A DNA stretch of 64,000 nucleotides, taken from the sequence record NC_019399.1, one strand, 5' to 3'. How positions within the stretch are numbered: position 1 is the first letter of the stretch; each line of letters opens with the position of its first letter. This document shows positions 39,622 through 55,982 of this stretch, piece by piece. The DNA is from Escherichia phage vB_EcoM_ACG-C40. The position numbers and the translations under genes were made by a program. The notes under the pieces were generated by a model, which saw nothing but the letters and a program-made list of their open reading frames with translations, had not been told where the DNA came from and did no database searches.

Positions 39622-39891
39622 TTATCTAAGTAAGCAGTATGCTTGGAACACTTTCTCCATCATCTTTTTAAATTCATGAATATCTATGTAATGATCAGTA
39701 ATATCAGCGCGACGTAAAAAGTCTAAAAACTTTTTATGGGTGTTAGAATATGCGCTTTCATTTAATTCAGAAACATGACTTTCCCAATATCCAACACCAG
39801 TCTTATTTGGGAAAAATGAAATTCTCATGTATTGGTTAACATAGAAAATACCAAAATTTTCAATAGCAATAGAAATATCAATTAATTTCAT
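39622..39891 (-). CDS. hypothetical protein (89 aa)
   Basis: ATG start. Confidence 0.5.
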   Translation of the reverse strand: MKLIDISIAIENFGIFYVNQYMRISFFPNKTGVGYWESHVSELNESAYSNTHKKFLDFLRRADITDHYIDIHEFKKMMEKVFQAYCLLR

Positions 39892-40103
39892 ACATTCATC
39901 AACTTAGCCGCTTCAAGAGCTGCATCTAGTGAATCAAATTGGTCAACATATTCAATCAATTCGCCATAATTGGCATATAACCACCATTGGCTAAATTCAT
40001 ACTCAAGGATGAATCCGTTTCCTTCAATTTGAGTTAAACCAATGCCATTTGTATTTACTTCATACCCAGCAAGACGTAAATCGTTAATAAGAGCTTCGTT
40101 CAT
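39888..40103 (-). CDS. hypothetical protein (71 aa)
   Basis: ATG start. Confidence 0.5.
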   Translation of the reverse strand: MNEALINDLRLAGYEVNTNGIGLTQIEGNGFILEYEFSQWWLYANYGELIEYVDQFDSLDAALEAAKLMNV

Positions 40104-40105
40104 AA

Positions 40106-40432
40106 TTATACCTTAGTAATTTTCAGGTCTGCAAATTTTTTCTTGCGTTGATTTTTCATACGACGAATAGTTTTATCGGAAATTTCATGCTTTTGATAAG
40201 CTTTAGATTCTACACCAAAAGCTTTAACATCAAATTCTGACAAGATATATTGAACCAACAATTCACGGACAGTATTGCGTCCAATCTTCTGATCATTCTG
40301 TTTCATCATTTGATGAAGATCTTTTTCCCATTTATCCAAAATTTGAGGAGTTACAATATCGCCTTTTTCTAGCAAAGAAACTACTTTATCATATGCGTAA
40401 GAATTAATGACGTTTTTAATTTGAATAGTCAT
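40106..40432 (-). CDS. hypothetical protein (108 aa)
   Basis: ATG start. Confidence 0.5.
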   Translation of the reverse strand: MTIQIKNVINSYAYDKVVSLLEKGDIVTPQILDKWEKDLHQMMKQNDQKIGRNTVRELLVQYILSEFDVKAFGVESKAYQKHEISDKTIRRMKNQRKKKFADLKITKV

Positions 40433-40470
40433 ACATTATCCTCAATTACGTTAAAATTTTATTATCCAAA

Positions 40471-40486
40471 AAGGGCCGAAGCCCTT
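40471..40486 (-). terminator. terminator-like UUCG hairpin
   Basis: AAGGGC-UUCG-GCCCUU followed by U-rich tract. Confidence 0.5.
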
Positions 40487-40685
40487 AGCTAAACTTTTTG
40501 GCACCCTTCCAGCCTTCGTACATCATTGCGGCTGATATTAATATTGCTCCTGAGCAACTTGAATATTTGTGATTCCAAAACCAGTTTAGAAAAACTTCGT
40601 CATCAATACCTTGTGCTATCATATTTTCAAAGAACTGACGACGAGCTTCAGCAATTCGCTGCGATAATTTAGATTCAGGATTCAT
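40485..40685 (-). CDS. hypothetical protein (66 aa)
   Basis: ATG start; last codons run through the terminator hairpin. Confidence 0.45.
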   Translation of the reverse strand: MNPESKLSQRIAEARRQFFENMIAQGIDDEVFLNWFWNHKYSSCSGAILISAAMMYEGWKGAKKFS

Positions 40686-40817
40686 TTAAATTTCCCAATT
40701 GCCATTTTCATCAATGAATTTAATCCAGTCATTTACTGACCACTTAGTTGTATCGCCTTTTGGAGTAACATTTAAAGTATATAGCCCTTGCTTAAAAAGC
40801 ATTCGTTTGATATTCAT
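40686..40817 (-). CDS. small protein (43 aa)
   Basis: Track ORF trimmed to ATG 40817 after GAGGAAA to remove overlap. Confidence 0.4.
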   Translation of the reverse strand: MNIKRMLFKQGLYTLNVTPKGDTTKWSVNDWIKFIDENGNWEI

Positions 40818-40824
40818 ATTTTCC

Positions 40825-41118
40825 TCAGCTGTAACGATAACACTCATTTGATTTACGTTTAGCAACTCGTTGAGAAGTATTATAATCAAAATCATCGTCA
40901 ATGTAAACAGATTTTTTCAACTTTCTTACTTCACCACGTAATTGACGATTTAGCTCATCTTTAACTTCTGAATCAATGCCTTTCATTCTACGCCATTTAT
41001 CTGAGCGAAAAATGTTTTCAACCATATCTTTATGACTTACCCCATCAGGAGCTTTACGCTTTCCGAAATAGTCATAATCACGCACTTTTAAGTCTTTACG
41101 ACGATACGTTTTACCCAT
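40825..41118 (-). CDS. hypothetical basic protein (97 aa)
   Basis: Track start 41157 is GTG; ATG 41118 after AAGGAAA. Confidence 0.45.
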   Translation of the reverse strand: MGKTYRRKDLKVRDYDYFGKRKAPDGVSHKDMVENIFRSDKWRRMKGIDSEVKDELNRQLRGEVRKLKKSVYIDDDFDYNTSQRVAKRKSNECYRYS

Positions 41119-41293
41119 GGAGTTTAATTTCCTTAGCAATTGAACTAAATGCAGCACGATCGCAAATCATGCGTTTATGTAACTTGAGTATAATATAGCA
41201 AACTTCAAAACTATTTACATGAGTAACACGAACAGCATTACCATTCACGAGATAATACTGTCCCTTTTTAATTTCTTTATCAACCACAACCAT
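41111..41293 (-). CDS. hypothetical protein (60 aa)
   Basis: ATG start; early promoter upstream. Confidence 0.45.
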   Translation of the reverse strand: MVVVDKEIKKGQYYLVNGNAVRVTHVNSFEVCYIILKLHKRMICDRAAFSSIAKEIKLHG

Positions 41294-41323
41294 ATCAATT
41301 CCTCAAAGGTAATTCATGTGTTA

Positions 41324-41353
41324 ATAATACCACAGTTTGAGCTCGTTGTAAAC
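41324..41353 (-). promoter_or_regulatory. T4-type early promoter
   Basis: GTTTAC, 18 bp, TGGTATTAT; A/T-rich upstream element. Confidence 0.6.
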
Positions 41354-41434
41354 AACTTTGTGAAAATTATTTTAGGGAATGATAAGAAGGGAACGATAGC
41401 TTAAAATGATAATATACAGAATGTAAGAAAGAAA

Positions 41435-41448
41435 GGCCCAGAGGGCCC
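41435..41448 (-). terminator. intrinsic terminator downstream of nrdH
   Basis: GGGCCC-UCU-GGGCC followed by UUUCUUUCUU. Confidence 0.55.
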
Positions 41449-41451
41449 GTC

Positions 41452-41760
41452 TTAGTCTTCTATGATATCCCTATCATATCCAAGTGAAATGAGAGTTTCT
41501 TTGAAGTGTTTAATGTTCTTTTGTCTAGAATCATTAATGAAAATGACTGGATAACGAATGTTAAGAGATGTGAATCCAGCGCGTTTAGCAAGAGATACAA
41601 TCAGTGGACGATCATACTCAATCTTACCATTATTTGTAAGAACCTTATAGAAAGTAAAAGGAGCATTGAGCTCCTTTAGAAGTTTTGTAACTGATTGACA
41701 TCCAGGACAACGACCAACTTCATCTGGAATTCCATAGACTTCAATCTTATTTTGTTTCAC
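41452..41760 (-). CDS. nrdH: glutaredoxin-like protein NrdH (102 aa)
   Basis: CPGC redox motif; GTG start after AAGGA. Confidence 0.8.
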   Translation of the reverse strand: MKQNKIEVYGIPDEVGRCPGCQSVTKLLKELNAPFTFYKVLTNNGKIEYDRPLIVSLAKRAGFTSLNIRYPVIFINDSRQKNIKHFKETLISLGYDRDIIED

Positions 41761-41762
41761 AA

Positions 41763-41975
41763 CTATTCCTTACTAAGAGCAGCATTCAGTTTGTTAGTAA
41801 TTTTATCCAGACGCTCATTGAACTCACTAGAAGATAAGCCCTTTTCTGGAGAAATTAAACTAATCACGAAAAATATAGCAATAAAAGGAATAAGGAAAAT
41901 AGCTCCAACTGCCATAAACAGAAAGAATGTTACAGTTGTAAGAAAATCAGCTAAACCTTTACGAAATTTATACAT
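41763..41975 (-). CDS. small membrane protein (70 aa)
   Basis: ATG start; central hydrophobic helix. Confidence 0.5.
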   Translation of the reverse strand: MYKFRKGLADFLTTVTFFLFMAVGAIFLIPFIAIFFVISLISPEKGLSSSEFNERLDKITNKLNAALSKE

Positions 41976-42090
41976 ATTTTACCCTTAATTGATTAACCAA
42001 GCATTGATAAGCACTAAACTATACTGCGAATAAAATTCTGGACCAAAATGAAAAATCATATCATTTATAGTATCCATAATGTAATTCAAT

Positions 42091-42561
42091 TTAATCATGT
42101 TTCCACACCCCATCGGTATTTGACCAAAGCCGCTGATTATCTGATCCTCGCCACAGCTTTTTGGTCGGAAGATTTTTCTCATACTTCCCATCAATAATAA
42201 CATCAACATATTTAAGCATTTCTAGTTGTTTAATATCTTCAAACTTATATCCTGTCCACAACCAAATGCTTTTATTGGGATAAAGATTTTTTACTGTTTG
42301 AACAATGCAATGAATAACATCTCGGTTATCAGGATAGAGAGGGTCTCCTCCAGTTATAGTTAATCCTTCTATATAATCATTATTCAAACATTCAATCAAT
42401 TGTTCTAGTGTTTCACCAGTGAATGGAATACCATTTCTAGCATTCCATGTTGATTTATTATAACACCCTTCACATTTATGCAAACAACCTGTAACGAAAA
42501 GAACTGTCCTGCATCCAGGACCATTAACAAAGCAGCACGGGTATATTCTGTCATAATTCAT
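42091..42561 (-). CDS. nrdG: anaerobic ribonucleotide reductase activase NrdG (156 aa)
   Basis: Radical-SAM cysteine motif CxxxCxxC; ATG 42561 (track start 42582 is TTG). Confidence 0.88.
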   Translation of the reverse strand: MNYDRIYPCCFVNGPGCRTVLFVTGCLHKCEGCYNKSTWNARNGIPFTGETLEQLIECLNNDYIEGLTITGGDPLYPDNRDVIHCIVQTVKNLYPNKSIWLWTGYKFEDIKQLEMLKYVDVIIDGKYEKNLPTKKLWRGSDNQRLWSNTDGVWKHD

Positions 42562-43388
42562 AATAATATCCAATTTTTCCAAGCTTCATCAGTAGAATTA
42601 CAGCGTTTTAGTATAAGATGTCTAGAAACTTTTATGGCATTTGAGCACTTTTTAATTGAATCATATTTAATACCGTCAACTGAAACGGTTTTGCTAGTTG
42701 GAGAAATTTTTCCATACATTGGATTTTTTGAACCAACTTGAAGTCCTTTTAAAGCTTTTGAAAGCTTTTGTCTAGATTCCAATGACATGGGAGAATTCTT
42801 TTTACCTTCAATAATTCGCTTGCGATGAAGTTCGCGTTCTTCTTCACTCAAAGAATTGTAATATTTTTTAACACCGTTTGATATAGATAATTTATCTTTC
42901 TCAGACCGCTCTCCAGCTAATTTACTTCTAACATCTTTTCGCTTCATAGCTATGCTTACGGCTTTATTTAAATTTGCTTGATGCTCTGGCGTACGTTTAT
43001 ATTTCTTTAAAGCACGTGAAATAGCTATTTTAGTTTCTTCTGTTCTCTTTTTACCTTTATTTGCTAAACTATTTTTGCGGCGATGTTCAAGTGTCTGTTC
43101 ATAGGCAGTTCCACCTTTTCCACCAGGTTTAATATTATATGTATTTTCTTTTAGACAATACTCTTCGGTTACAAGTTCAGCTTCTTTATCATACATCTGT
43201 TTTTCATTATCAAAAACATGTAAAATTTCTTTATTAAAATTTTTTCTACCATATTTTAATAAAGCGGCACGAATCAATGTTCCTGACCCCATATAACCGT
43301 CATTTATGTTATCGGTGCTATGCGCACCGATATATTCCTTTGAATTAATTATATTTGTTATTTTATAAATTATATAATACCTATGCAT
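42558..43388 (-). CDS. GIY-YIG homing endonuclease (276 aa) between nrdG and nrdD
   Basis: YIIYKITNIINSKEYIGAHS GIY-YIG motif plus NUMOD-like repeats; ATGA overlap with nrdG. Confidence 0.75.
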   Translation of the reverse strand: MHRYYIIYKITNIINSKEYIGAHSTDNINDGYMGSGTLIRAALLKYGRKNFNKEILHVFDNEKQMYDKEAELVTEEYCLKENTYNIKPGGKGGTAYEQTLEHRRKNSLANKGKKRTEETKIAISRALKKYKRTPEHQANLNKAVSIAMKRKDVRSKLAGERSEKDKLSISNGVKKYYNSLSEEERELHRKRIIEGKKNSPMSLESRQKLSKALKGLQVGSKNPMYGKISPTSKTVSVDGIKYDSIKKCSNAIKVSRHLILKRCNSTDEAWKNWILL

Positions 43389-45198
43389 GTTTTACTCGTT
43401 TTACCATTTCTTTCATTTTACCTAAATTCCATGGAACAACGCTAGGAGTTCCAAGATATCCGCATGTTCTTCTTATTGTATTCATCTTTTTAGGATCAGT
43501 TTCTCCACAAATAGAACAAATAAATCCGTTTTCAGTAGGAGTCATTTCATGGGTGCTTCCGCATGTAAAACATTTATCTACTGGCATATTAACACCAAAA
43601 TAATCTAAATGTTGTGCAGCATAATCCCATACGGCCTCAAGACCCTTTAAGTTATTTTTCATATCAGGAAGTTCAACATAAGAAATGTGACCACCTGTCG
43701 CAATGAAATGATATGGTGCTTCTCGAGAAATCTTTTCAAACGGAGTAATATTTTCTTCTACTGAAACATGGAAACTGTTAGTGTACCAGCCTTTATCAGT
43801 AACATCTTTTACACTTCCATATTTTTCAGTATCAAGTTTACAGAAGCGATAACAAAGGTTTTCAGCGGGAGTAGAATACAAGCTAAAAGCAAAACCGGTT
43901 CTTTCAGTCCACTGTTTAAGACGAGCATTCATTTTAGTTAAAATTTCCTGTCCAATATCACGACCGACAAGAATATTCAATTCGTGAATACCAATGTATC
44001 CTAGGGACACTGAACTTCTACCGTTTTTAAATAACTCAATTATATCGTCATCAGGTTTAAGACGAACCCCGAATGCACCTTCTTGGTAAAGAATAGGAGC
44101 AACAGTAGCTTTAACTCCTTTTAAGGAACTAATTCTACACATCAAAGCTTCAAAACACAAATCCATACGTTCATTGAATAATTCAACAAATTTCTGTTCG
44201 TTAAATTGTGTTCCAATATAAGAATCTAATGCAATACGAGGAAGATTCAGTGTTACAACACCAAGATTATTACGTCCATCAAGAATTTCATTACCAGTCG
44301 AATCTTTCCATACGCTCAAGAAACTACGGCAACCCATTGGAGAAACAGGAACAGATGAACCAGTGATAGCTTTATTGTTCTTAGCTGAAATAATATCAGG
44401 ATACATCCTTTTGCTTGCACACTCTAGAGCAAGCTGCTTAATATCATAGTTCGGATCGTCTTTGTAAAGATTAACACCTTCTTCAACGAACATAACAAGC
44501 TTAGGGAAAATAGGAGTTATCCCATCACGACCGAGACCTTTAATACGATTTTTCAGAATTGCTTTCTGAATCATTCGTTCAGTCCAGTCAGTTCCTGTAC
44601 CAAATGTAATTGTTACAAAAGGCGTTTGTCCGTTTGAACTAAAGAGAGTATTTACTTCATATTCATAAGCTTGGAATGCATCGTATACATCTTTTTCTGT
44701 TTTAGATTGAGCATAATTCAACGCATCAGCGATTTGCCATTTTTCTGCATCCTCAATATGTTTTGCATAGGTGCGTTTAACATAAGGAGAAAGTACTTTA
44801 TCTACATTCGCAAAAGTCGTTCCGCCGTATTGGTGGGAAGCAACTTGCGCAGTAATTTGTGCCATAATTGCAGTAGCAACACCGATTGATTTAGGAGTTT
44901 CAATCTGTGCATTACCGAGCTTAAATCCGTTCTCAAGCATTCCTTTTAAATCTACTAAACAACAATTAGTAAATGGAAGAGCAGGGGAATAATCAATATC
45001 GTGGAAATGGATAATTCCGCTTTCATGCGCTTTCATAATAAAAGACGGGACCATATTTTTGGCAATGTGTTTAGACACAATACCAGCCATAAGGTCCCGT
45101 TGAGTTGGAAAAACACGAGAATCTTTATTAGCATTCTCGTTTAAAAGGTCTTTATTAGTTTTATGAATCAATCCTTCAATTTCTTTTTCAATTGTCAT
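43381..45198 (-). CDS. nrdD: anaerobic ribonucleoside-triphosphate reductase NrdD (605 aa, uninterrupted)
   Basis: Glycyl-radical C-terminus RRTCGYLG; single ORF, no intron. Confidence 0.93.
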   Translation of the reverse strand: MTIEKEIEGLIHKTNKDLLNENANKDSRVFPTQRDLMAGIVSKHIAKNMVPSFIMKAHESGIIHFHDIDYSPALPFTNCCLVDLKGMLENGFKLGNAQIETPKSIGVATAIMAQITAQVASHQYGGTTFANVDKVLSPYVKRTYAKHIEDAEKWQIADALNYAQSKTEKDVYDAFQAYEYEVNTLFSSNGQTPFVTITFGTGTDWTERMIQKAILKNRIKGLGRDGITPIFPKLVMFVEEGVNLYKDDPNYDIKQLALECASKRMYPDIISAKNNKAITGSSVPVSPMGCRSFLSVWKDSTGNEILDGRNNLGVVTLNLPRIALDSYIGTQFNEQKFVELFNERMDLCFEALMCRISSLKGVKATVAPILYQEGAFGVRLKPDDDIIELFKNGRSSVSLGYIGIHELNILVGRDIGQEILTKMNARLKQWTERTGFAFSLYSTPAENLCYRFCKLDTEKYGSVKDVTDKGWYTNSFHVSVEENITPFEKISREAPYHFIATGGHISYVELPDMKNNLKGLEAVWDYAAQHLDYFGVNMPVDKCFTCGSTHEMTPTENGFICSICGETDPKKMNTIRRTCGYLGTPSVVPWNLGKMKEMVKRVKHA

Positions 45199-45668
45199 TT
45201 TAAACTCTTTCTAAGCTGCTTCTTAAATGAAGCTATTAATTGTGTTTTGGTGTCAGATTCATTATATTCAAATCCTCTTTGAAGCATCTCGGCCATCATT
45301 TCCTCTTTTCCTAAACGAGAAAATTCCTTTGATTTATCTCCAACGAAGTTAGGGTGAATATTATTTTGGGTGTAATCGGATTTTAAATAAGTAAGTAAAT
45401 TTTCTAACCATTCAAGATAATCAACACCTTGTCCCTTTAAGCCAGAACGATTAAATTTGTGCTTCATTTGACCTTCTGCGGCATTGCATAGATTACAAAG
45501 CAATCCACGTACCTTTCCTGCTTTTGGTCCATTTAATTCATGGTCATGATCGAGGTGATTAGCTTGAACATCAGGATTTAGTTCTCGTTGGCAAATTAAG
45601 CATTTACCATTTTGTGCATCATAAAATTTCTGTTTTTCTTCTTTATATAATTTGCCAGTCAATAACAT
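45195..45668 (-). CDS. 49: endonuclease VII gp49 (157 aa)
   Basis: Zinc and HNH-like motifs CLICQ...HLDHDHE...CNLCN; length matches T4. Confidence 0.9.
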   Translation of the reverse strand: MLLTGKLYKEEKQKFYDAQNGKCLICQRELNPDVQANHLDHDHELNGPKAGKVRGLLCNLCNAAEGQMKHKFNRSGLKGQGVDYLEWLENLLTYLKSDYTQNNIHPNFVGDKSKEFSRLGKEEMMAEMLQRGFEYNESDTKTQLIASFKKQLRKSLK

Positions 45669-45673
45669 AATAA

Positions 45674-45698
45674 ACCCTTACCTTAAATAGATAAGGGT
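45674..45698 (-). terminator. hairpin upstream of gene 49 (terminator or translation-control structure)
   Basis: 7-bp stem ACCCTTA/TAAGGGT with 11-nt loop, then U-rich tract. Confidence 0.35.
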
Positions 45699-45705
45699 AT
45701 TTATT
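45698..45705 (-). promoter_or_regulatory. possible late promoter upstream of gene 49
   Basis: AATAAATA, one mismatch to TATAAATA, next to a hairpin. Confidence 0.3.
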
Positions 45706-45709
45706 ATTT

Positions 45710-46195
45710 TCAAGTATTGTAAAACATTTGATTCAATCGCTTATATTGCCGAATCTTTTGGTCAGAAAAAGAAATTTGAGTTTCAAGCCATTCAATGTAC
45801 TCTGCGGCAGCTTGCATCAGGTTACCTTCATAGCCATCGTTATTTTCTTGTGCAGCTAATTTAGCTAATGCGTATGAAATACGTTCACCTTGAAAATCGG
45901 CTTTAGGTATTTGAACATCTTGACTAGTTCGCTCTACAACTTCTTCAATTTCGCCATTTTCGACTGATTCAGTATTCCACAAACACCAATACGTAATTGG
46001 CTTATCGTAGATGTTAATAATCTTTCCGTCGGAAAGTTCAATTTCAATAATTCCAGTATCAGGTTCTATATCATCTTCACATTCTTTTGCAAGTTCACGA
46101 ACTTTAAAGACAGTACCTGCACTAAGTTCCGGCCAGTAATTACACAGCCCTATATCAGCACGATTAATTCTAAACCACTTATCTACTGTAATCAT
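45710..46195 (-). CDS. pin: Pin-like protease inhibitor (161 aa)
   Basis: Position upstream of gene 49 and size; ATG 46195 after GGAG (track start is TTG). Confidence 0.5.
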   Translation of the reverse strand: MITVDKWFRINRADIGLCNYWPELSAGTVFKVRELAKECEDDIEPDTGIIEIELSDGKIINIYDKPITYWCLWNTESVENGEIEEVVERTSQDVQIPKADFQGERISYALAKLAAQENNDGYEGNLMQAAAEYIEWLETQISFSDQKIRQYKRLNQMFYNT

Positions 46196-46235
46196 GTCCC
46201 ATCTCCATATCAATTAAGTCATTTATTGTAGGTTC

Positions 46236-46265
46236 ATTATATACTGTTTCTTCATCAGTGTAAAC
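46236..46265 (-). promoter_or_regulatory. T4-type early promoter upstream of pin-like gene
   Basis: GTTTAC, 18 bp, TATAAT. Confidence 0.55.
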
Positions 46266-46285
46266 CGGTTCTTTCGGCTCTGGCT

Positions 46286-46489
46286 CTACAGTTTCCCATC
46301 TAACCGCCCACCAGGGTTTAACCCCCGAAGCTTATTAAGTTCTTCATAATCAATCCAGGATTCTAGTCCTGATGGCAAATCAGATTCAATTTCCCAAAGA
46401 AGTTCTTCAATTTTATGAAGACGATCTAATTCTTCAGCTGGAATAGTAACCATTGATGGAGTTCTTGATACACTAATATCGTAAATCAT
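46286..46489 (-). CDS. hypothetical protein (67 aa)
   Basis: Track start 46528 is GTG; ATG 46489 after GGAG. Confidence 0.45.
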   Translation of the reverse strand: MIYDISVSRTPSMVTIPAEELDRLHKIEELLWEIESDLPSGLESWIDYEELNKLRGLNPGGRLDGKL

Positions 46490-46491
46490 AT

Positions 46492-46707
46492 TTACTCCAG
46501 TTTGACCATACAATCGCCGTATTTCCACTTAGAAATAGACTTTTCGCCATTAGAATAATAAACTTCAAGTTTAGCACGGTTATTTTTAATTTGAATAACC
46601 TTGGCTGTCATCAAAGTTCCATACCCATAGTAAACTGCAACTTCATCACCTACATATACCGCGCTTCCGCGGTAGTCATGGATATAATCAGTTCCTTCGA
46701 GCATCAT
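46492..46707 (-). CDS. hypothetical protein (71 aa)
   Basis: ATGA overlap with nrdC. Confidence 0.5.
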   Translation of the reverse strand: MMLEGTDYIHDYRGSAVYVGDEVAVYYGYGTLMTAKVIQIKNNRAKLEVYYSNGEKSISKWKYGDCMVKLE

Positions 46708-46967
46708 TTGAAGTATTCCCGCAATTGGTCAAATCCACCAATATGACTTCTATCAGGAGCAAATACCTGAGGCATTGTCAAGCCGATTTGAGTATCACGA
46801 CCTAGTTTAGTCAGAAGCTCAGCAATTTTCTCATCATCAAAAACACCTTTTTCCGGCATAATGTTGATAAATTCAAATGGCTGTTTCTTCACGGTCAAAA
46901 GACGTTTTGCATTATCGCAATACACGCATTTATGGATGTTGCTATCATAACCATATACTTTAAACAT
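46704..46967 (-). CDS. nrdC: thioredoxin/glutaredoxin NrdC (87 aa)
   Basis: CVYC redox motif; size matches T4 NrdC. Confidence 0.8.
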   Translation of the reverse strand: MFKVYGYDSNIHKCVYCDNAKRLLTVKKQPFEFINIMPEKGVFDDEKIAELLTKLGRDTQIGLTMPQVFAPDRSHIGGFDQLREYFK

Positions 46968-46968
46968 A

Positions 46969-47211
46969 TTATTCCTTAATTCCTAGTACTTGTTTAAAAG
47001 TCTCGTCGTAATCAAGACTTTGGCCCGTTTGTTCTTTATGTTTGTATATAATATCACTTACTTCTGATAGCATATTTTTATATGAACGAGTTAAAGCAGA
47101 TTTAAGCACGCTGTATCTATCAGGAAATTTACCATGTTCATTATAATAAGCTATTGCTAATTCACGGACTGCCTTTTCAGCAGTCTCCATATATTCTTTA
47201 CGCTTTGTCAT
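46969..47211 (-). CDS. hypothetical protein (80 aa)
   Basis: Track start 47226 is TTG; ATG 47211 used. Confidence 0.45.
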
Positions 47212-47512
47212 TTTCTTCTCGGTCAAATCGGTGTTTACAATGGCGACATTTATAACGAAGAATACTAGTCTGCCAATGAATCAATTGAACCTGTTCAGTT
47301 CCACATTCAGGGCAATTAGGAACGTTTTTAGAAGCCCTTTCACGACGTTCAACCATGACCATTACAGAATCCCAATTAACAGGAGGGCTATAATCATCAC
47401 AACCATAAATCTTTCCACGCATTTCCAAATTGTCTTCTTCACCAGCCATAATAATTTTAATTAGACTAGAATTACTTGAAGCTGCAATGTCTTCTAATAA
47501 ACGCTTTTTCAT
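47198..47512 (-). CDS. zinc-ribbon protein (104 aa)
   Basis: CPECG...CRHCKH motif. Confidence 0.5.
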
Positions 47513-47739
47513 TTCAATACCTCAATAGCATTACGTAAACCATTTGCTTTTGCATTAAGAGCTTTTAACAATTTGGTGTGTTCTGCAATTTGGGCTTCAA
47601 CTTCAATCAAACGGGCATTGAGATATTCACGTTCTTCACTCAGATTATCAACCTTTTCTACTTTAGGCTCTTTTACAACTGTCTTATATGTATTAGGGTT
47701 CTTCAGTTTAATTAGAATGCGTGAGCTGTTCGCGAGCAG
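47509..47739 (-). pseudogene. start-less 76-codon ORF, probable frameshifted continuation of 47708..47923
   Basis: Open frame LLANSSRILIKLKNPNTYKTVVKEPKVEK... with no in-frame ATG/GTG/TTG; TGA overlaps next ATG. Confidence 0.35.
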
Positions 47740-47923
47740 TCATTTGCGTAATATATCCAGCTTTATCAAAATGTCGCAGCCATTCACTGCTATTCATATA
47801 CTTAAAGTGAATGGAACTATTAACTCTATCAGGGTCTAAATTATTTTCGCACAAAAATGTCATAGCATCACGAGTATAGCTGGCATTACGAACCATATCT
47901 TCAATTTGAGAACGAGTTTTCAT
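47708..47923 (-). CDS. hypothetical protein (71 aa), possibly N-terminal part of a frameshifted gene
   Basis: ATG start; followed in +1 frame by the start-less ORF. Confidence 0.45.
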   Translation of the reverse strand: MKTRSQIEDMVRNASYTRDAMTFLCENNLDPDRVNSSIHFKYMNSSEWLRHFDKAGYITQMTAREQLTHSN

Positions 47924-47931
47924 GGTGTTCC

Positions 47932-48819
47932 TTAAGATTTAAGTAAATCAACAATTTTAATTAACTTTTCACGCTCAGATTTAGCTTTACTACTCAATCC
48001 AGATAGTCTAAAAATTTCATCATCATATTGTTGAATAGAAATATTCAGCTCTTCAATCTGTTTATTAAAATAATCAATTTGTTCAGAATGTTTTTCGTTA
48101 CTACGAACTGGTACAGGTTTTGTAGGCAATGTAGTTGAACTGGATTCATTCGGGCGATAAATTAAAATACAACTTGAACCAATAGGGCATTTTGCACCAG
48201 ATGAATATTCTAATGTTCCAGCTTCTTTTAAAACTTCAAAAGCTAAACAGAGATGATGCCCCATATTAACATAATCTGTAGAGTGAGCTCTGATGTAATA
48301 ATCATCGCCACGAATACTAAATTTAAAGCATTTAAGGTCTTCTGTATTATTGGTCTTAAAAATCATTTGTTTATCTAGACCTTTAGCTAATCGAGCACCT
48401 AATGCTAATAATCGTCGTTGATTTTCCCACAAATCTGCGATCATTTGGTCAAATGATAATTTCGGCATTAGTCGACCATAAAGGTCATATCCTTTATTAT
48501 AATTGCGAAGGATTTCACTCGCATTAATACGAGACAACGCTCCAATTTTATTAAGGGCTTTCATGATGCGATTAGATAAAAGCATTCCAGACCCGTTTGT
48601 TCGTTGTAAATGTTTTTCTAATCCAAATCCAATATCAACTTTAAACTTATCTAAAATTTCGGCGTGAACATCTCTGTCAATAACATTCAAATCCAAAGTT
48701 GGGTTAAATCTATGAAAAAATTTATCTGGCTCTCCACGACGAAGTACAGTCCATTCATTTAATTTTTTATTAACTAAAGATTTAATTACTGCATTGACAT
48801 TATTAATTACTACTGACAT
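47932..48819 (-). CDS. hypothetical protein (295 aa)
   Basis: ATG 48819 (track start 48834 is TTG). Confidence 0.5.
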   Translation of the reverse strand: MSVVINNVNAVIKSLVNKKLNEWTVLRRGEPDKFFHRFNPTLDLNVIDRDVHAEILDKFKVDIGFGLEKHLQRTNGSGMLLSNRIMKALNKIGALSRINASEILRNYNKGYDLYGRLMPKLSFDQMIADLWENQRRLLALGARLAKGLDKQMIFKTNNTEDLKCFKFSIRGDDYYIRAHSTDYVNMGHHLCLAFEVLKEAGTLEYSSGAKCPIGSSCILIYRPNESSSTTLPTKPVPVRSNEKHSEQIDYFNKQIEELNISIQQYDDEIFRLSGLSSKAKSEREKLIKIVDLLKS

Positions 48820-48830
48820 ATTTTTCTCAC

Positions 48831-49235
48831 TCAATTTTCAATTTTACTAAATACACAGAATATGATGGAAAAGACTATATAAGCACCGCATACAGATTGA
48901 ACTAATACCATTCCAAAGAACCAAACAATATTATCAAACAATGTCTGTTTTACGTCGAAAGGACGTAAACTTACAGTAATATTATCGCCTTTTTCTATTG
49001 ATGAATACATCTCTGGTGAAATATATTCACTAAATCTATAACCGTCTTTGAGTTCATATACAGCAATAAATGATAAACTAGACCCCTTTCCTTGAGTTCC
49101 TGTAAGGGTATTAACTACAGTAACATCATAATCTTTATAATGCATATAATCATTAATTGCGTAATAACCATATGCAACTACTACACATAAACAACATATC
49201 AATAAATTCAATCTTTTAATTATCAACTGTTTCAT
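48831..49235 (-). CDS. membrane protein (134 aa)
   Basis: Two hydrophobic helices; middle-type promoter upstream. Confidence 0.5.
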   Translation of the reverse strand: MKQLIIKRLNLLICCLCVVVAYGYYAINDYMHYKDYDVTVVNTLTGTQGKGSSLSFIAVYELKDGYRFSEYISPEMYSSIEKGDNITVSLRPFDVKQTLFDNIVWFFGMVLVQSVCGAYIVFSIIFCVFSKIEN

Positions 49236-49264
49236 AATAATCTCAGTTAAAAGGGCTTAGAACC

Positions 49265-49288
49265 ATTATACCATCCTTGGTATAAAGC
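49265..49288 (-). promoter_or_regulatory. possible middle promoter (degenerate MotA box)
   Basis: CGCTTTA box, 11-bp spacer, TGGTATAAT extended -10. Confidence 0.35.
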
Positions 49289-49290
49289 GG

Positions 49291-49818
49291 TTATGCGAGT
49301 ACCGTCTTTAACCGTTCTTCAAACTTCCGAAGAGTATTTTGGCGTTCAGCTCTTTGCTTTTTGTAAGTTTCAATACGCTCTGAAATGAGAGCGTATCGTT
49401 CATTTACTGATTCTTTCATAAAATCAGGAATTTCACGAGAAGCTTTAATCTCGTCAAATTTATCAATAACAGCTTGCTCTTCAGCAATTAAGTTATCATA
49501 CATCAAAATATCTTTCTTGATGAACTCAATATCTTCTTGAGTTACACGAGATAATTTAGATGCTTTATCCTTTTTGTACTGTTCGTTAGTATCACGAGAC
49601 CAGTGTAATGTACGATTTTTATTCGTATTCTTGTAAATTTCTACAATACCAATCTCATCGATAATAACGATCCAATTCCAACGGGATTTGTAAATTTGTC
49701 CTCCATCAACAGTGATTTCACCTCCGATTGAGATGTCATTAAAGAACTTGCTTTGTGCTTCAGATTTAAATTTACCATCGTTGTAATTTACCAAGTTGAA
49801 AATATCTTTAGCGTTCAT
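49291..49818 (-). CDS. hypothetical protein (175 aa)
   Basis: ATG start; early promoter upstream. Confidence 0.5.
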   Translation of the reverse strand: MNAKDIFNLVNYNDGKFKSEAQSKFFNDISIGGEITVDGGQIYKSRWNWIVIIDEIGIVEIYKNTNKNRTLHWSRDTNEQYKKDKASKLSRVTQEDIEFIKKDILMYDNLIAEEQAVIDKFDEIKASREIPDFMKESVNERYALISERIETYKKQRAERQNTLRKFEERLKTVLA

Positions 49819-49845
49819 TTTTGTTCCTCCGTAGTTGATAGTTGT

Positions 49846-49875
49846 ATAGTACCACAGAGGAACGGTCTTGTAAAC
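49846..49875 (-). promoter_or_regulatory. T4-type early promoter
   Basis: GTTTAC, 18 bp, TGGTACTAT. Confidence 0.65.
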
Positions 49876-49877
49876 AA

Positions 49878-50192
49878 CTAAAAGAAACTTCTTTCACAAT
49901 TTTTTCCACTGAACCAAGCGCTCACTGCTTTCTTAGTCTCAGGAGCAGTGTTATCCATAAACCATTCAAAGGCAGCCTTTTTATGATTCTGGAGGGCTTC
50001 TCGGGCTTTAATCTGCTCACGGTCTATTAACACTAACATATGAGCCTTTCTTGTCACCATGGGCTTCTTATGATTTTTTGAATATTCCCAATCATTTGTC
50101 CATCGCATCGTTGTTGCGAATTGAAGTACAGCTTCTTTAATCTTAGTTTCGTAAATTTCACGAGCCTTTGAGTATAACATCATTACCTCCAT
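49878..50192 (-). CDS. hypothetical protein (104 aa)
   Basis: ATG start. Confidence 0.5.
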   Translation of the reverse strand: MEVMMLYSKAREIYETKIKEAVLQFATTMRWTNDWEYSKNHKKPMVTRKAHMLVLIDREQIKAREALQNHKKAAFEWFMDNTAPETKKAVSAWFSGKNCERSFF

Positions 50193-50282
50193 TTACCAGT
50201 TTAATTCTAGTCATCTTTTTGATGGCAGTCCATATAATCTATTTCTGAACTGCCTTTTTGTCTTAGAAGTCCTCTTATGAAT

Positions 50283-51251
50283 TTATTTCAGAAGAGTAAC
50301 CTCAGCAATTTCTTCCCAACCGTTTTTGTCGGTCATAATAAAGTCAGCAAGATAAAGAGCAGTACGCAGTGAAACATTACGTAAACGGTTAACATTGACT
50401 TTCATCCATGATAATGCTTTATAAGTTTCTTCATCAGAAAGACCGCGCTTTTGCATCATGTCGGTTGAAAGAATAACATCTTCAACCCTGACCATAATTT
50501 CTTCATTAGTGTGAACACCCAAATCTAAATAAACTGAGCGGGACACTAATGCTTGTAAATGTGGAGCAAGTTTAGTACCACGGTCTAATTCGCGGTCAAT
50601 GTCAACGTTTGTGATAAAAACAATCGTTCCTTTAAATTCAAACTCACGCTCAATGCCTTTTTCTTCTAAGTAAGAAGATGCAGTGCTCCAGCAGACTTTA
50701 CGGGTCTCTCCAGTGTCCAGAGCAGCTTTCAGAAGATTAAGAATGTCCATATCAGAGAAAACATCCACATCATCAATCAAAAGGACAGAATTCTCTTCAC
50801 GATTATTCCAAAGCTGCTCATAAAGACCAATACCAGAGATTTTACCATTAATGCTTTTATATTCAATGTATCCATTATCATTTGCTTTATTTAAAGCTTT
50901 ATCTAAAGAATACGTTTTACCAATACCCGCCGCACCAGAGATAATTAATGAACGAATGTTTCCGTTAATAATACCATTCGTCATCATTCCCATAACATTA
51001 AATCTTTTATTAATGCGGGTTTTCATATCTTCATATGATTCTTTAACTTCTTCAACTTTTACACCATCATATGAAATGTCTGATTTGTAAACCCAAACAC
51101 CGCGACGCTTACCGTCAATTTCAACAAAAACTTTACCATCTCCTTGTGCATCTACCGGAGCATTATCTGGGAACCATTCGCCTAAGAGCTCAAAAGTTCC
51201 AGAGATTTCTTTACCAAAGTAGATACCCTTATTGATAGTTACAGTTTTCAT
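50283..51251 (-). CDS. AAA-type P-loop ATPase (322 aa)
   Basis: Walker A GAAGIGKT, Walker B LLIDDVD; ATG 51251 after GGAG (track start is GTG). Confidence 0.6.
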   Translation of the reverse strand: MKTVTINKGIYFGKEISGTFELLGEWFPDNAPVDAQGDGKVFVEIDGKRRGVWVYKSDISYDGVKVEEVKESYEDMKTRINKRFNVMGMMTNGIINGNIRSLIISGAAGIGKTYSLDKALNKANDNGYIEYKSINGKISGIGLYEQLWNNREENSVLLIDDVDVFSDMDILNLLKAALDTGETRKVCWSTASSYLEEKGIEREFEFKGTIVFITNVDIDRELDRGTKLAPHLQALVSRSVYLDLGVHTNEEIMVRVEDVILSTDMMQKRGLSDEETYKALSWMKVNVNRLRNVSLRTALYLADFIMTDKNGWEEIAEVTLLK

Positions 51252-51287
51252 TTTATTCTCCAATTTCACATTTGTTTTGATAGGGTA

Positions 51288-51317
51288 ATAGTATCACACT
51301 ACTACCCTGCTGTAAAC
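51288..51317 (-). promoter_or_regulatory. T4-type early promoter upstream of ATPase gene
   Basis: GTTTAC, 18 bp, TACTAT; conserved leader CATTTTATTCTCCAA follows. Confidence 0.6.
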
Positions 51318-51320
51318 AAT

Positions 51321-51584
51321 TTATTTTAATGTTTGCCAAATTTTTACTGCTTCGCGACGAGATACTTCTACAGCTCCAAGTTCTACAGCTTTTTGGCGTC
51401 GCCGAGCGTGTAAGTCATAATGTTTAATGCGTTTATCTTGAAACCAAGAACGTTTCATTCCTATTGCTTCTGCCATTTCGTGAAGCTCTTCAATATCTCC
51501 ATCAGTGAACATATGACAATTTTTAGTTGGATGACCGCGAAGTTTCCATCCATGATTCATTAAAACATCTACGTAAACTGTCAT
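51321..51584 (-). CDS. hypothetical protein (87 aa), GC-richer than surroundings
   Basis: ATG start; compositionally distinct. Confidence 0.5.
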   Translation of the reverse strand: MTVYVDVLMNHGWKLRGHPTKNCHMFTDGDIEELHEMAEAIGMKRSWFQDKRIKHYDLHARRRQKAVELGAVEVSRREAVKIWQTLK

Positions 51585-51730
51585 TGATTCTTCTCCAAAT
51601 AAGTTTCGATAATTTTCTGGGCGAGATAAACCGCGTTATCTTCAGTTGCGTCTTCTAAGAAACTTTCAAAACACTCTGAAATTTCTTCTGTATCAATCAA
51701 CTTTTTTACTTCAATTGGTGTAATTTTCAT
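51581..51730 (-). CDS. small acidic protein (49 aa), not in the ORF track
   Basis: ATG 51730; TGA overlaps next ATG (ATGA); MKITPIEVKKLIDTEEISECFESFLED... Confidence 0.45.
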   Translation of the reverse strand: MKITPIEVKKLIDTEEISECFESFLEDATEDNAVYLAQKIIETYLEKNQ

Positions 51731-51766
51731 TTTGTTTTCCGTTTAAGTGTTTGTTTTGATAGTTGT

Positions 51767-51796
51767 ATAGTACCATAAAGCTTTATGCTTGTAAAC
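51767..51796 (-). promoter_or_regulatory. T4-type early promoter
   Basis: GTTTAC, 18 bp, TGGTACTAT; part of duplicated 37-nt cassette. Confidence 0.65.
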
Positions 51797-51825
51797 AATT
51801 TTGTGAAAAATTTTTGAAATAAAAA

Positions 51826-51845
51826 AGGGGACCTCTAGGGCCCCC
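51826..51845 (-). terminator. intrinsic terminator
   Basis: Imperfect GC-rich hairpin with A-run on plus strand upstream. Confidence 0.45.
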
Positions 51846-51854
51846 TTTATGCTT

Positions 51855-52340
51855 TTATTCCATTTCTATTATATGCATGCTCTTTTTGCTATCAAAATAT
51901 ATGTTTTTAACTGTTAACTCCGAATTAATTGGCAATAAAAACTCTCTTTCATAATCCACCATAGAAAGATTATCATAAAGCTTATTAAGCTTATCATCAT
52001 CAATCTGGCCAGATTCTTCAATTGCGATTAAATTTTCTAAAATTTCAATCATAGCAGTTGAATAGTCAAAAACGTTTGCATTTTTTAACACTATTAAAAC
52101 ATTAGTCATATAGCGTTCTGCTGCAAATGTTTCAGCTATATGAGATTCACTACTAAAGGAAGTTATTCTTTTAAATTTGATTCTCCTATTAACTTCAAAC
52201 TTATGAGATAGTACTTCCTCTATTGCAAGTCCTCTAAAAAGCATGTCTTTAATCTCAAGTTTGTCTTTAATGTAATCATTAACACGCTTATGATTAAAAT
52301 CATTAATTTTGTTGCCAAGGCATTTCATTAAAATATGCAT
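51855..52340 (-). CDS. hypothetical protein (161 aa)
   Basis: ATG 52340 (track start 52355 is TTG). Confidence 0.5.
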   Translation of the reverse strand: MHILMKCLGNKINDFNHKRVNDYIKDKLEIKDMLFRGLAIEEVLSHKFEVNRRIKFKRITSFSSESHIAETFAAERYMTNVLIVLKNANVFDYSTAMIEILENLIAIEESGQIDDDKLNKLYDNLSMVDYEREFLLPINSELTVKNIYFDSKKSMHIIEME

Positions 52341-52387
52341 TGTGTTTCTCTTCAATTTTTAAAGAACGATTAATTAACTACAAATAT

Positions 52388-52417
52388 ATTATAATATGCT
52401 TTATGATAGAAGTAAAC
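52388..52417 (-). promoter_or_regulatory. T4-type early promoter
   Basis: GTTTAC, 18 bp, TATAAT; part of duplicated 37-nt cassette. Confidence 0.65.
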
Positions 52418-52449
52418 AATTTTGTGAAAAATTTTTGAAATAAAAAAGA

Positions 52450-52463
52450 GAGCCCGAAGGCTC
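52450..52463 (-). terminator. intrinsic terminator downstream of nucleotidyltransferase-like gene
   Basis: GAGCC-UUCG-GGCUC followed by U-rich tract. Confidence 0.6.
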
Positions 52464-52467
52464 CCTA

Positions 52468-53481
52468 TCATTTATAATAACTTCGGTGGTTTTCAAGATA
52501 AACCCTCTCAAGGAAGTCATCCCAAAAACCCATGTCTACTTTTTGCTGCATACCGTTCTTAGAAGCTTCAGTAGATGCTGCTTCTACTTGATCGACCACA
52601 TCTTCCAAAAACTCTTGAACCGTTTTAAATGGATGTTTACCCAACTTCACGTCGAGAATAAATGGAGCATCTTGGAGTGGATAAACCAAGTCACCAGTTT
52701 TGTAAATTTCCAATAGTTGGAGTCCACCACGGCAAGCATGACTCAGAGCTTTCCAGTCAATACCTTCATTGGCTTCGGCCTTACGAGCACGTTCACCGTA
52801 TTCAGCATCTAATTTGTTCAGTGACTGCTTAAGCTCAATAAGAGAAAGCGTTGTCTGATATTTACGACCCAACACTGTGTAGAACGTCTGTGGGCCTGTT
52901 TTCTCATGATTATGGAACACCCATTCACAGAATTCGTTTTCTGGAAGACGATGCTTAATATCTTCAACTTTAGTACGACGCTGCTTAATAGAACCATCTT
53001 CTTGGTAATCAACCCATTGCTCAGGGATTTGATTAACTACTTTCAATACATCACGTAATGCAGCCAAACGAGAACCCTTAACGCCGTATTTAGAAGCTTG
53101 CTTACGGACATATCCTAAATAGGATTTCATGTTAGTCGTATAAAAACGAGAACGGTTGTCTTGAATAAACTTCCACACATCAGGCAAATCAGATTTAACC
53201 ACTAGTTCAGGTGGAGTGTGAAGCATATCCAATGCTACAGTTTCACCATCTGCTGCTAATTTAAAGAAATACTTAAGACTATACAATTCGTGGTCAATAT
53301 CATCTTTAGTGTTTTTAGATGATGTGTTGTTAGTGTTTTTACTCATGTGCTCTTTAACATTTCCGATAAGAATATCACGAGCAGGAGGAACAAAGATTTC
53401 TTTAAAATCTACATCAGATTCTGGGGTAGAAGTTCCATAAAGATGACTACCAAAATAGCTTTTCATTACTGTTTTCATCAT
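52468..53481 (-). CDS. pol-beta-superfamily nucleotidyltransferase-like protein (337 aa)
   Basis: N-terminal GSHLYGTSTPESDVD fits the GS-x(9-13)-DxD nucleotidyltransferase signature. Confidence 0.5.
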   Translation of the reverse strand: MMKTVMKSYFGSHLYGTSTPESDVDFKEIFVPPARDILIGNVKEHMSKNTNNTSSKNTKDDIDHELYSLKYFFKLAADGETVALDMLHTPPELVVKSDLPDVWKFIQDNRSRFYTTNMKSYLGYVRKQASKYGVKGSRLAALRDVLKVVNQIPEQWVDYQEDGSIKQRRTKVEDIKHRLPENEFCEWVFHNHEKTGPQTFYTVLGRKYQTTLSLIELKQSLNKLDAEYGERARKAEANEGIDWKALSHACRGGLQLLEIYKTGDLVYPLQDAPFILDVKLGKHPFKTVQEFLEDVVDQVEAASTEASKNGMQQKVDMGFWDDFLERVYLENHRSYYK

Positions 53482-53939
53482 TCAGCCTTATATTCAATAA
53501 CAGGACATACTTTAGCTTTACGAGCTTTTAAAAATTCAACGATAATCGATTTCTTGGGTTGAATAGGAGGTAAACCTTTATACGCCCTATCAATATTTTC
53601 TACGTGTAAAGCATAATCCTTTTTCCATTTATAATCTTTATATTTTTCACGCAGTTGTGCAGGAATAACAAATGAACCGATAATAAGTAAAACAAGCAAA
53701 ATGGCAAGTATAAATGCTGATGGAATAAGAGTCCATAAACTACCAAAAATAAGCCATTTCTGTATGATTTCTGCGCAGATGATAGTTAGACCTACGAGTA
53801 TAGTACATCCGAAAAAAGAAACGAAAAATGTAGGGATAACAATAGACCAAAAGTATGCGCACAGCGTCTTAGGTCGTTGCCATTCATCGTTAAACAATTT
53901 GAATAATTTATAGTGCCAAGAGTTTTCATTAATAATCAT
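53478..53939 (-). CDS. membrane protein (153 aa)
   Basis: Three predicted TM helices; ATGA-type overlap with neighbour. Confidence 0.5.
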   Translation of the reverse strand: MIINENSWHYKLFKLFNDEWQRPKTLCAYFWSIVIPTFFVSFFGCTILVGLTIICAEIIQKWLIFGSLWTLIPSAFILAILLVLLIIGSFVIPAQLREKYKDYKWKKDYALHVENIDRAYKGLPPIQPKKSIIVEFLKARKAKVCPVIEYKAE

Positions 53940-53941
53940 AA

Positions 53942-54463
53942 TTATCCTTTCATTGAAGGCGTAACGGTTGTTAAATACTTAATCATAGCTTCAGCTTCTG
54001 ATTTTGACAATGAAATTTCTCCATTGTTTTGACGAATAGAAATAAAATCCGGATGACGGTCACCACCAGCTTTTAAAACACACATATAAGTATCAACTTC
54101 GCCTTCAATATTTGAAATGATTGAAGCAGTTCCACATGAATGTGGTTTTTGATAAATCAATACAGCTTTTCTTCCACCGTTTGACTGTTCATAAACTTTT
54201 AATACATCAAACAAATCACTTCTTTTATCAATAGCTAAAATGTTATTTTCATCTTCAATGTTAAATCCTTCGGATACTTCATAAAGTGTCACCCATAAAT
54301 CGCCAATATCAATAACAGCGTTCACTTTTCCATGACTTTCAAGAGCATGACAAATTTTCTTGATTTCGTCATAACTCATTTTAATAATATCATCTCCTTG
54401 AATAAGGAAGATGTCATTTTTAAATTCAACACGAATTAAACCACTTCCACTTGAAATAAACAT
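53942..54463 (-). CDS. hypothetical protein, paralog A (173 aa)
   Basis: C-terminus SEAEAMIKYLTTVTPSMKG resembles next ORF. Confidence 0.5.
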   Translation of the reverse strand: MFISSGSGLIRVEFKNDIFLIQGDDIIKMSYDEIKKICHALESHGKVNAVIDIGDLWVTLYEVSEGFNIEDENNILAIDKRSDLFDVLKVYEQSNGGRKAVLIYQKPHSCGTASIISNIEGEVDTYMCVLKAGGDRHPDFISIRQNNGEISLSKSEAEAMIKYLTTVTPSMKG

Positions 54464-54469
54464 ATTTCC

Positions 54470-55003
54470 TCACTTTGAAATCATAGTTGGAATGACAGAA
54501 TCGAGATAAGTCTTTAGCGCAATAGCTTCGTCTTTGGTAAATGTGACAATATACGATCGAAAATCATCAATTTGACGAATAGTTAAGACATCACCATCTT
54601 CATAGCATTTTGATACGTTTAAAACAGTTTCATCATTCTGATTGCAAGCGTTAGTAATAATAGCATTGCAATTTTTGAGCCATTTTAAACTATGTTTTCT
54701 TTCATTAGAATAATAAAAATATTTAATCTTATCTATAAAACTATCCCAATGGATAACTGATAAACACATTGACTCACTTTTAATATTAAATCCTGGGCAT
54801 GAAGAATAAAAATGAATTTTGTGCTCATCATTGATGCTTACTATTTTATCAGTATAAGGATATTCAATTTGGGTTAAATGAATGATTTCACTAGGCGTAA
54901 AATATAGCATATCGTCTTCTTGCGTCAAACGATACATGTTATTTACTTTTTCTATAGCCAATTCACCAAAAAGCGGACTAACTTCTAATACTAATCGTTT
55001 CAT
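54470..55003 (-). CDS. hypothetical protein, paralog B (177 aa)
   Basis: C-terminus DEAIALKTYLDSVIPTMISK; ATG 55003 after AAAGGA (track start is GTG). Confidence 0.5.
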   Translation of the reverse strand: MKRLVLEVSPLFGELAIEKVNNMYRLTQEDDMLYFTPSEIIHLTQIEYPYTDKIVSINDEHKIHFYSSCPGFNIKSESMCLSVIHWDSFIDKIKYFYYSNERKHSLKWLKNCNAIITNACNQNDETVLNVSKCYEDGDVLTIRQIDDFRSYIVTFTKDEAIALKTYLDSVIPTMISK

Positions 55004-55004
55004 A

Positions 55005-55271
55005 TTAATCCTTTTTATTGGCACGAATTTGTTCTAAAATTTTAGAATATTCCTTTGTATCAGATTTACGTACAATTGATACACTATAAGGCATACTATC
55101 GGTGTCTTTTATAAAGCGTTCCAAATGACACTCTAACAAAATTTCTGGATTATAAATCGTGTACATCAAATTACCTGTTGCTCCACGATATTGGCAGATT
55201 TCTACTGATTGAACACCATTCCATAATTTTGTTAAAACTAAATCACCTACTTCTAATTTAGGAAAGCCCAT
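55005..55271 (-). CDS. hypothetical protein (88 aa)
   Basis: ATG 55271 (track start 55283 is TTG). Confidence 0.45.
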   Translation of the reverse strand: MGFPKLEVGDLVLTKLWNGVQSVEICQYRGATGNLMYTIYNPEILLECHLERFIKDTDSMPYSVSIVRKSDTKEYSKILEQIRANKKD

Positions 55272-55272
55272 G

Positions 55273-55458
55273 TTATTCACCAATTAAAGTTTCAATATAA
55301 GAATCAAGATTTACTTTAGCTTCTTCCATAAGAGTTTTGTATTTAATCTTGTTAGCATGTCCGGAGAAAGCTGATTCATCAATAATTGTTGATGTATGAA
55401 CAGCTTTACTATACGTCTCAATTAATTCTCTTAATTTAAAAGCCTGCTCACTTGTCAT
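55273..55458 (-). CDS. hypothetical protein (61 aa)
   Basis: ATG start. Confidence 0.45.
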   Translation of the reverse strand: MTSEQAFKLRELIETYSKAVHTSTIIDESAFSGHANKIKYKTLMEEAKVNLDSYIETLIGE

Positions 55459-55620: not shown

Positions 55621-55622
55621 CA

Positions 55623-55980: not shown

Positions 55981-55982
55981 AA

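Follow-up and report, generated by a model that had tools for sequence, protein, structure and literature searches.

Remnants of nrdC.5 and nrdC.3 at a probable deletion scar in the nrdC accessory gene cluster of a Tequatrovirus

The locus belongs to the early nrdC region of a T4-like phage (Tequatrovirus), where the genes are carried by the minus strand of the window, i.e., the whole stretch of 64,000 nucleotides that was analyzed. Gene names were taken from the T4 and RB3 annotations, and nrdC, nrdC.1, nrdC.2 and nrdC.6 keep the T4 order (Table 1). The nearest genomes in the phage collection are about 96–97% identical over 24 kb. Upstream of the locus, the nrdC.6 homolog is intact, with 97.6% identity across all 296 residues of ASO78A nrdC.6 in tblastn and a match to phrog_2257 at E = 2.5e-152, and its TAA stop codon (47934..47932) shares nucleotides with the AAGGA ribosome-binding site of the reading frame that follows. 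Further upstream, a promoter scan identified a T4-type early promoter (TTTACA-17-TACTAT with an upstream TG) at the position of a promoter annotated in ASO78A (L004 1126..1155). On the downstream side, nrdC.2 possesses a ribosome-binding site of its own, GAGG at 47523..47520, located 7 nt before its ATG. Neither tRNA genes nor Rfam families at gathering threshold were found in the whole window (1..64000), and the absence of tRNA genes indicates that the window stops short of the T4 tRNA cluster. In GenBank, many deposited Tequatrovirus genomes call nrdC.1 to nrdC.11 “thioredoxin”, e.g., “thioredoxin (x11)”. This label has spread from the gene designation nrdC.N, the proteins in question matching DUF or unknown-function families and not thioredoxin.

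Table 1. Features of the nrdC.8–nrdC interval, in window coordinates.
Feature	Position	Strand	Evidence
nrdC thioredoxin	46704..46967	-	T4/RB3 naming
nrdC.1	46969..47226	-	T4/RB3 naming
nrdC.2, intact, 104 aa	47198..47512	-	98% identity over 104 aa to ASO78A nrdC.2
nrdC.3 3' remnant ('nrdC.3), codons 238-309 + TGA	47509..47727	-	tblastn, PHROGs
Truncated nrdC.5 (nrdC.5')	47708..47923	-	tblastn, Pfam, PHROGs
Putative deletion junction, ACAGCTCAC	47721..47729	-	Overlap of two BLAST blocks
nrdC.6 homolog, intact, 296 aa from ATG at 48819, upstream of the scar	47932..48819	-	tblastn, phrog_2257
T4-type early promoter, retained, upstream of nrdC.8	49846..49874	-	Promoter scan

Two other differences from relatives were observed elsewhere in the window. 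A 166-aa open reading frame (51855..52355, minus strand) lies between a nrdC.11-like nucleotidyltransferase gene (52468..53481) and nrdC.10, and is missing in CE1, with respect to which the window has about 580 extra bp. It has no Pfam match, resembles phrog_832 “RNA polymerase ADP-ribosylase” at E = 4e-24, and occurs at 90% identity or more in only about 42 phage records. These matches point to a small accessory gene similar to an ADP-ribosyltransferase. At about 44663..44667 (minus strand), in nrdD, the window is devoid of about 1,040 bp present in CE1 (L005 17437..18478). In CE1, this segment splits nrdD, carries a homing-endonuclease gene and occupies the position of the I-TevII intron in T4. 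Judged from this comparison, the nrdD gene of the window appears to be free of the intron.

Between nrdC.6 and nrdC.2 (47509..47923), two overlapping reading frames are found. The first one starts with an ATG, encodes 71 aa (MKTRSQIEDM...REQLTHSN) and ends with TAA. The second one (47739..47509) is in the +1 frame relative to the first, which it overlaps by 32 nt. It follows a TGA at 47742..47740, remains open for 76 sense codons (LLANSSRILIKLKNPNTYK...NAIEVLK) and ends with a TGA at 47511..47509, which overlaps the ATG of nrdC.2 (47512..47510) in an ATGA motif. This frame contains neither ATG nor GTG. It holds three in-frame TTG, at codons 44, 57 and 75, none of them with a usable Shine-Dalgarno sequence, the GAGG located just 5' of codon 75 being the ribosome-binding site of nrdC.2. 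A preliminary description of the locus had pointed out the 76 open codons, the overlap with the next ATG, the lack of an initiation codon with a ribosome-binding site, the +1 relation and the 32-nt overlap, and each of these points was found to be correct when the sequence was re-read. Because runs of 76 codons or more without a stop occur about 30 times in a shuffled version of the window (34% G+C), the length of the start-less frame alone is unremarkable, and its status was assessed by homology.

The upstream frame corresponds to the beginning of nrdC.5. In tblastn, the 71-aa sequence matched 494 phage records, and in 492 of them its residues 1–68 align with the N-terminus of nrdC.5, at up to 97% identity. 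Profile searches gave the same limits, with a match to positions 1–69 of 307 of the Pfam family DUF7235 (PF23882; E = 3.9e-19, 69.6 bits for a cut-off of 30) and to positions 1–68 of 329 of phrog_2351 (E = 3.4e-31). NrdC.5 is 340 aa long in T4 and 339 aa long in ASO78A, so that only the N-terminal 20% or so of the full-length profile is covered. From these partial matches, the 71-aa frame is best described as a truncated fragment and not as a functional member of the NrdC.5 family. It is composed of the native ribosome-binding site and ATG, 68 native codons, three out-of-frame codons (HSN) derived from nrdC.3 DNA, and the TAA. At the DNA level, the nrdC.5 remnant is identical to ASO78A at 196 of 198 positions.

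The downstream frame corresponds to the end of nrdC.3. Its sequence is 100% identical to residues 238–309 of ASO78A NrdC.3 over 72 aa (tblastn E = 4e-40) and near-identical to the tails of the 309–310-aa proteins of RB3 and G2540-3, while the DNA matches ASO78A at 218 of 219 positions. The 76-codon frame as a whole matched positions 229–334 of 334 of phrog_1435, which is the NrdC.3/NrdC.4 family (E = 7.4e-15). By this homology to ASO78A NrdC.3 and to phrog_1435, the start-less frame is a genuine coding sequence. Its first four codons (47739..47728) are nrdC.5 DNA read out of frame. The remnant has neither a start codon nor a ribosome-binding site, whereas intact nrdC.3 genes comprise 309–310 codons. 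The ATGA overlap between the nrdC.3 stop and the nrdC.2 start is, by comparison, an ancestral arrangement, the same 4-nt overlap being annotated in RB3, T4, G2540-3 and ASO78A.

These matches assign the two frames to two different genes of different protein families, each frame being a fragment. The preliminary description had suggested a single gene of about 137 codons split by a +1 frameshift, which does not hold for the assignments made here (phrog_2351 positions 1–68 for nrdC.5, phrog_1435 positions 229–334 for nrdC.3). The comparison with homologs that it proposed leads to the same answer, as relatives show two genes, each with its own start, with 2,646 bp between the two break points. 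BLASTP gave no significant similarity between NrdC.5 and NrdC.3 (E = 0.1). A distant paralogy does link NrdC.4 to NrdC.3 (25% identity, E = 5e-6), a relationship which is irrelevant to a junction between nrdC.5 and nrdC.3.

Very probably, one deletion of about 2.65 kb took place at a short direct repeat in the nrdC.6–nrdC.2 accessory cluster, and the locus is its scar. Alignment of the window from 50500 to 46000 with ASO78A by BLAST gave two colinear blocks with about 97.5% identity. The first one pairs window 50500..47721 with ASO78A L004 501..3283, and the second one window 47729..46000 with ASO78A L004 5921..7649. The blocks share 9 nt of the window (47729..47721), and 2,646 bp of ASO78A are missing between them. 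As annotated in ASO78A, this segment comprises nrdC.5 codons 69–339, all of nrdC.4, nrdC.3 codons 1–237 and a T4-type early promoter, the second annotated one (nrdC.4 early promoter, L004 4100..4129). Colinear flanks with an absent internal segment were likewise obtained against CE1, and no other copy of nrdC.4 or of the missing parts of nrdC.3 and nrdC.5 was found by tblastn within the 64-kb window.

The junction itself could be placed by a three-way alignment. In ASO78A, ACAGCTCAC occurs in nrdC.5 (L004 3275-3283, codons 65–68), where it is followed by CG, and ACAGTTCAC occurs in nrdC.3 (L004 5921-5929, codons 236–239), where it is followed by GC. The window keeps one copy of the repeat, namely ACAGCTCAC followed by GC. 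The C at 47725 can only come from nrdC.5 and the G at 47720 only from nrdC.3. Four nucleotides of the repeat match perfectly (TCAC, 47724..47721), and 8 of 9 positions match when it is extended. A parent phage with a perfect 9-nt repeat was considered and rejected, since a C-carrying version of the nrdC.3 stretch gave a perfect match in none of 402 phage records and was absent from the viral contigs searched. The four relatives inspected directly carry T at this position (ACAGTTCAC). From these comparisons, the crossover would fall within TCAC, and the perfect repeat is probably limited to these four nucleotides. We calculated that a microhomology of at least 4 nt arises at a random junction with a chance of about 0.02. 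Taken alone, the 4-nt perfect microhomology is modest evidence for the deletion mechanism. Although the number of deleted base pairs (2,646) is divisible by 3, nrdC.5 and nrdC.3 lie in different genomic frames, and the join is therefore out of frame. This accounts for the “+1 overlap” that drew attention to the locus.

Two other routes to the join were examined and rejected. The first one is a simple internal deletion within nrdC.3, as suggested by G2540-3, in which nrdC.3 comes right after nrdC.6; in the window, the 71-aa frame matches nrdC.5 and not the N-terminus of nrdC.3. The second one is homologous recombination between paralogs, which is discarded by the lack of significant similarity between NrdC.5 and NrdC.3, residues 68 and 238 that are joined here not being equivalent.

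Compared with the intact genes of ASO78A, the remnants show 2 differences in 198 nt and 1 in 219 nt, without any stop or indel. With such an identity to intact genes (99% or more for both remnants), the deletion is recent relative to the divergence among these phages. All 39 relatives of a spread sample that cover the 4.5-kb interval have 6,087–8,276 bp there, vs. 4,501 bp in the window, and most of about 470 relatives, T4, T2 and T6 among them, have the full cluster. A 601-nt query spanning the junction was searched against 50,697 phage records (INPHARED), none of which had one place covering 80% of it or more. The junction sequence was not found in IMG/VR, JGI metagenome contigs or GTDB genomes, nor did the gene index contain the exact 71-aa product. 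The junction is private to this one sequence among the collections searched.

This uniqueness is also what would be expected from an assembly or library artefact, or from a minority variant, the phage then carrying an intact nrdC.5–nrdC.4–nrdC.3 cluster and the join being a chimeric template switch or a deletion sub-population. Template-switch chimeras form at microhomologies too, and deletion variants are known in T4 stocks (PMC9391042). However, a repeat of 4–9 nt is far shorter than assembler k-mers, which makes a collapse of paralogs implausible, the flanks are colinear with relatives over the whole 4.5 kb, and analogous deletions are present in the finished genomes of independent isolates. 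We consider this explanation improbable. The preliminary description had itself proposed a pseudogene, an assembly error or recoding. Of these, the notion of a broken, non-functional gene remnant was borne out and pseudogene is the closest term, while a 1-nt indel is contradicted by the two genes located 2.6 kb apart in relatives, and recoding has neither a motif nor a structure in its favor, in an arrangement that occurs in no relative.

A 1-nt frameshift within one gene of about 137 codons, whether a sequencing error or the mark of a recent pseudogene, would explain the +1 relation and the 32-nt overlap, both of which are real. The two halves nevertheless match different families at non-contiguous profile positions (1–68 of 329 and 229–334 of 334), and none of the 50,697 records covered at least 80% of the junction query at one place. 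Since the halves come from two genes, correcting a 1-nt error in 47700..47745 could not restore a gene. The comparison with homologs excludes this explanation.

Programmed +1 ribosomal frameshifting leading to a NrdC.5(N)–NrdC.3(C) fusion is even harder to accept, its probability being close to nil. The geometry is the only point in its favor, with a +1 overlap ending in ...UCU AAU UAA A, and the likeness to prfB (RF2) is likewise restricted to geometry, i.e., a downstream +1 frame overlapping an upstream stop. Unlike prfB, the locus has no CUU-U-type slippery codon, no conservation, and frames which come from unrelated genes. No known +1 slippery motif occurs in 47739..47708, the P-site AAU would re-pair poorly on AUU, and no Shine-Dalgarno-like stimulator is present upstream. 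Folding of the RNA at this site does not exceed that of shuffled sequences (z = +0.89), and no Rfam element was found. Besides, a site made by a private deletion could have no conservation in support of recoding. Equally negligible is the possibility that the short form is ancestral and that relatives gained 2.6 kb by insertion, given remnants that are partial matches to full-length families (N-terminal 20%, C-terminal 23%), a tail devoid of a start codon, and a full cluster in most relatives.

The deletion reading, which we retain, is in line with other deletions in this gene cluster. In G2540-3 (MK327944.1), nrdC.6 is directly followed by an intact nrdC.3, and 2,131 bp comprising nrdC.5 and nrdC.4 were lost between 12-bp repeats, ATGAAAACTCGT, which begin both nrdC.5 and nrdC.3 (site at L001 1540..1620). 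The nrdC.3 gene of G2540-3 is now under the nrdC.5 ribosome-binding site. Judging by the pattern of matches, fPS-2, N2 and SYGD1 have the same arrangement. In CE1 (ON229909.1; L005 13497..14453), nrdC.4 was lost at an 8-bp repeat, ACTCGTAA, adjoining the nrdC.4 and nrdC.3 starts, and the nrdC.3 body now stands behind the nrdC.4 start region. A similarly shortened interval was seen in about 4 of the 39 sampled relatives (Elenatom, CE1, G10400, LF73P3). In ASO78A and CE1, the ATG annotated for nrdC.4 (MFLLSTEEIN...) probably precedes the true start by 10 codons, a misplacement suspected because a GAGGAG ribosome-binding site precedes an internal ATG. The G2540-3 and CE1 types resemble the window in that the deletions fall within the nrdC.6–nrdC.2 cluster at short direct repeats. 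In those phages, the junctions lie at start codons and an intact nrdC.3 is kept under the translation signals of a neighbor, whereas the junction of the window lies inside both genes and out of frame, with the inactivation of nrdC.5, nrdC.4 and nrdC.3 together.

A comparable process has been described in the laboratory. T4 readily forms deletions of 0.7–6 kb between microhomologies of 2–10 bp, and one of them removed nrdC.5 (Srikant, Guegler & Laub, eLife 2022, PMC9391042). Experimentally evolved T4 and the window thus share the phage group, the short-repeat deletions and the non-essential early accessory genes affected, including the loss of nrdC.5 in one clone. The laboratory deletions compensated for dmd-tifA amplification, which sets them apart from the present case; the window phage is another Tequatrovirus, and no compensating amplification is visible in its 64 kb. 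Classical T4 rII deletions (Kumagai et al. 1993, Mosig 1987, as cited in PMC9391042) also have their ends in short repeats with one copy retained, but they concern another locus and were selected in the laboratory by phenotype.

The most plausible route would be illegitimate recombination or replication slippage at the short direct repeat ACAGCTCAC/ACAGTTCAC, which would have joined nrdC.5 to nrdC.3 with the loss of the coding segments listed above and of the early promoter that accompanies nrdC.4. As the start signals of nrdC.5' are intact, translation would proceed three codons into nrdC.3 DNA before reaching the stop, and the truncated gene is probably translated into a 71-aa fragment, i.e., a stub without 80% of the protein. 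The nrdC.3 tail is still open only because it was coding until recently; with no means of initiation, it is presumably transcribed but not translated. The nrdC.2 gene would still be initiated from its own GAGG and ATG. After the loss of the nrdC.4 promoter, the promoter at 49874..49846 is likely the nearest source of transcripts running through the scar, nrdC.2, nrdC.1 and nrdC.

When a T4 deletion has removed nrdC.5, plating on E. coli with the sirtuin defence gene dsr1 of ECOR17 is recovered if nrdC.5 is provided in trans (PMC9391042, the only study from which this activity is known), and T4 NrdC.5 is 91% identical to the allele of the close relatives of the window. Because T4 nrdC.5 counteracts Dsr1 and 80% of NrdC.5 is lost here, the phage is predicted, by analogy, to be sensitive to Dsr1 and to fail on E. 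coli strains with this defence (e.g., ECOR17) in the absence of nrdC.5 in trans. Phages of the G2540-3 type would, by the same analogy, also be devoid of the anti-Dsr1 gene. A literature search returned no functional information on nrdC.3, nrdC.4 or DUF7235. An adaptive rather than neutral loss appears unlikely. It would suppose that NrdC.3, NrdC.4 and/or NrdC.5 are a liability on some hosts (e.g., as a defence trigger), or that 2.6 kb were shed under the headful-packaging limit to pay for DNA gained elsewhere, in the manner of the T4 evolution experiment of the Laub group; in a weaker variant, the 71-aa stub would have its own activity. The idea of a liability comes from the at least three independent deletions that hit the cluster in natural isolates.

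For annotation purposes, truncated nrdC.5 is the proper label for the 71-aa open reading frame, and nrdC.3 remnant that for the start-less frame; neither should be presented as a new or frameshifted gene, or as a site of recoding. The allele was previously unrecorded, although the kind of event it probably represents is well known and ordinary in T-even phages. It would provide a natural example of a process observed in the laboratory evolution of T4, in which accessory counter-defence genes are lost by deletion at a short repeat. Together with the G2540-3 and CE1 types, it would bring to three the deletion alleles in one cluster, marking nrdC.3–nrdC.5 as a dispensable and often remodelled part of Tequatrovirus genomes.
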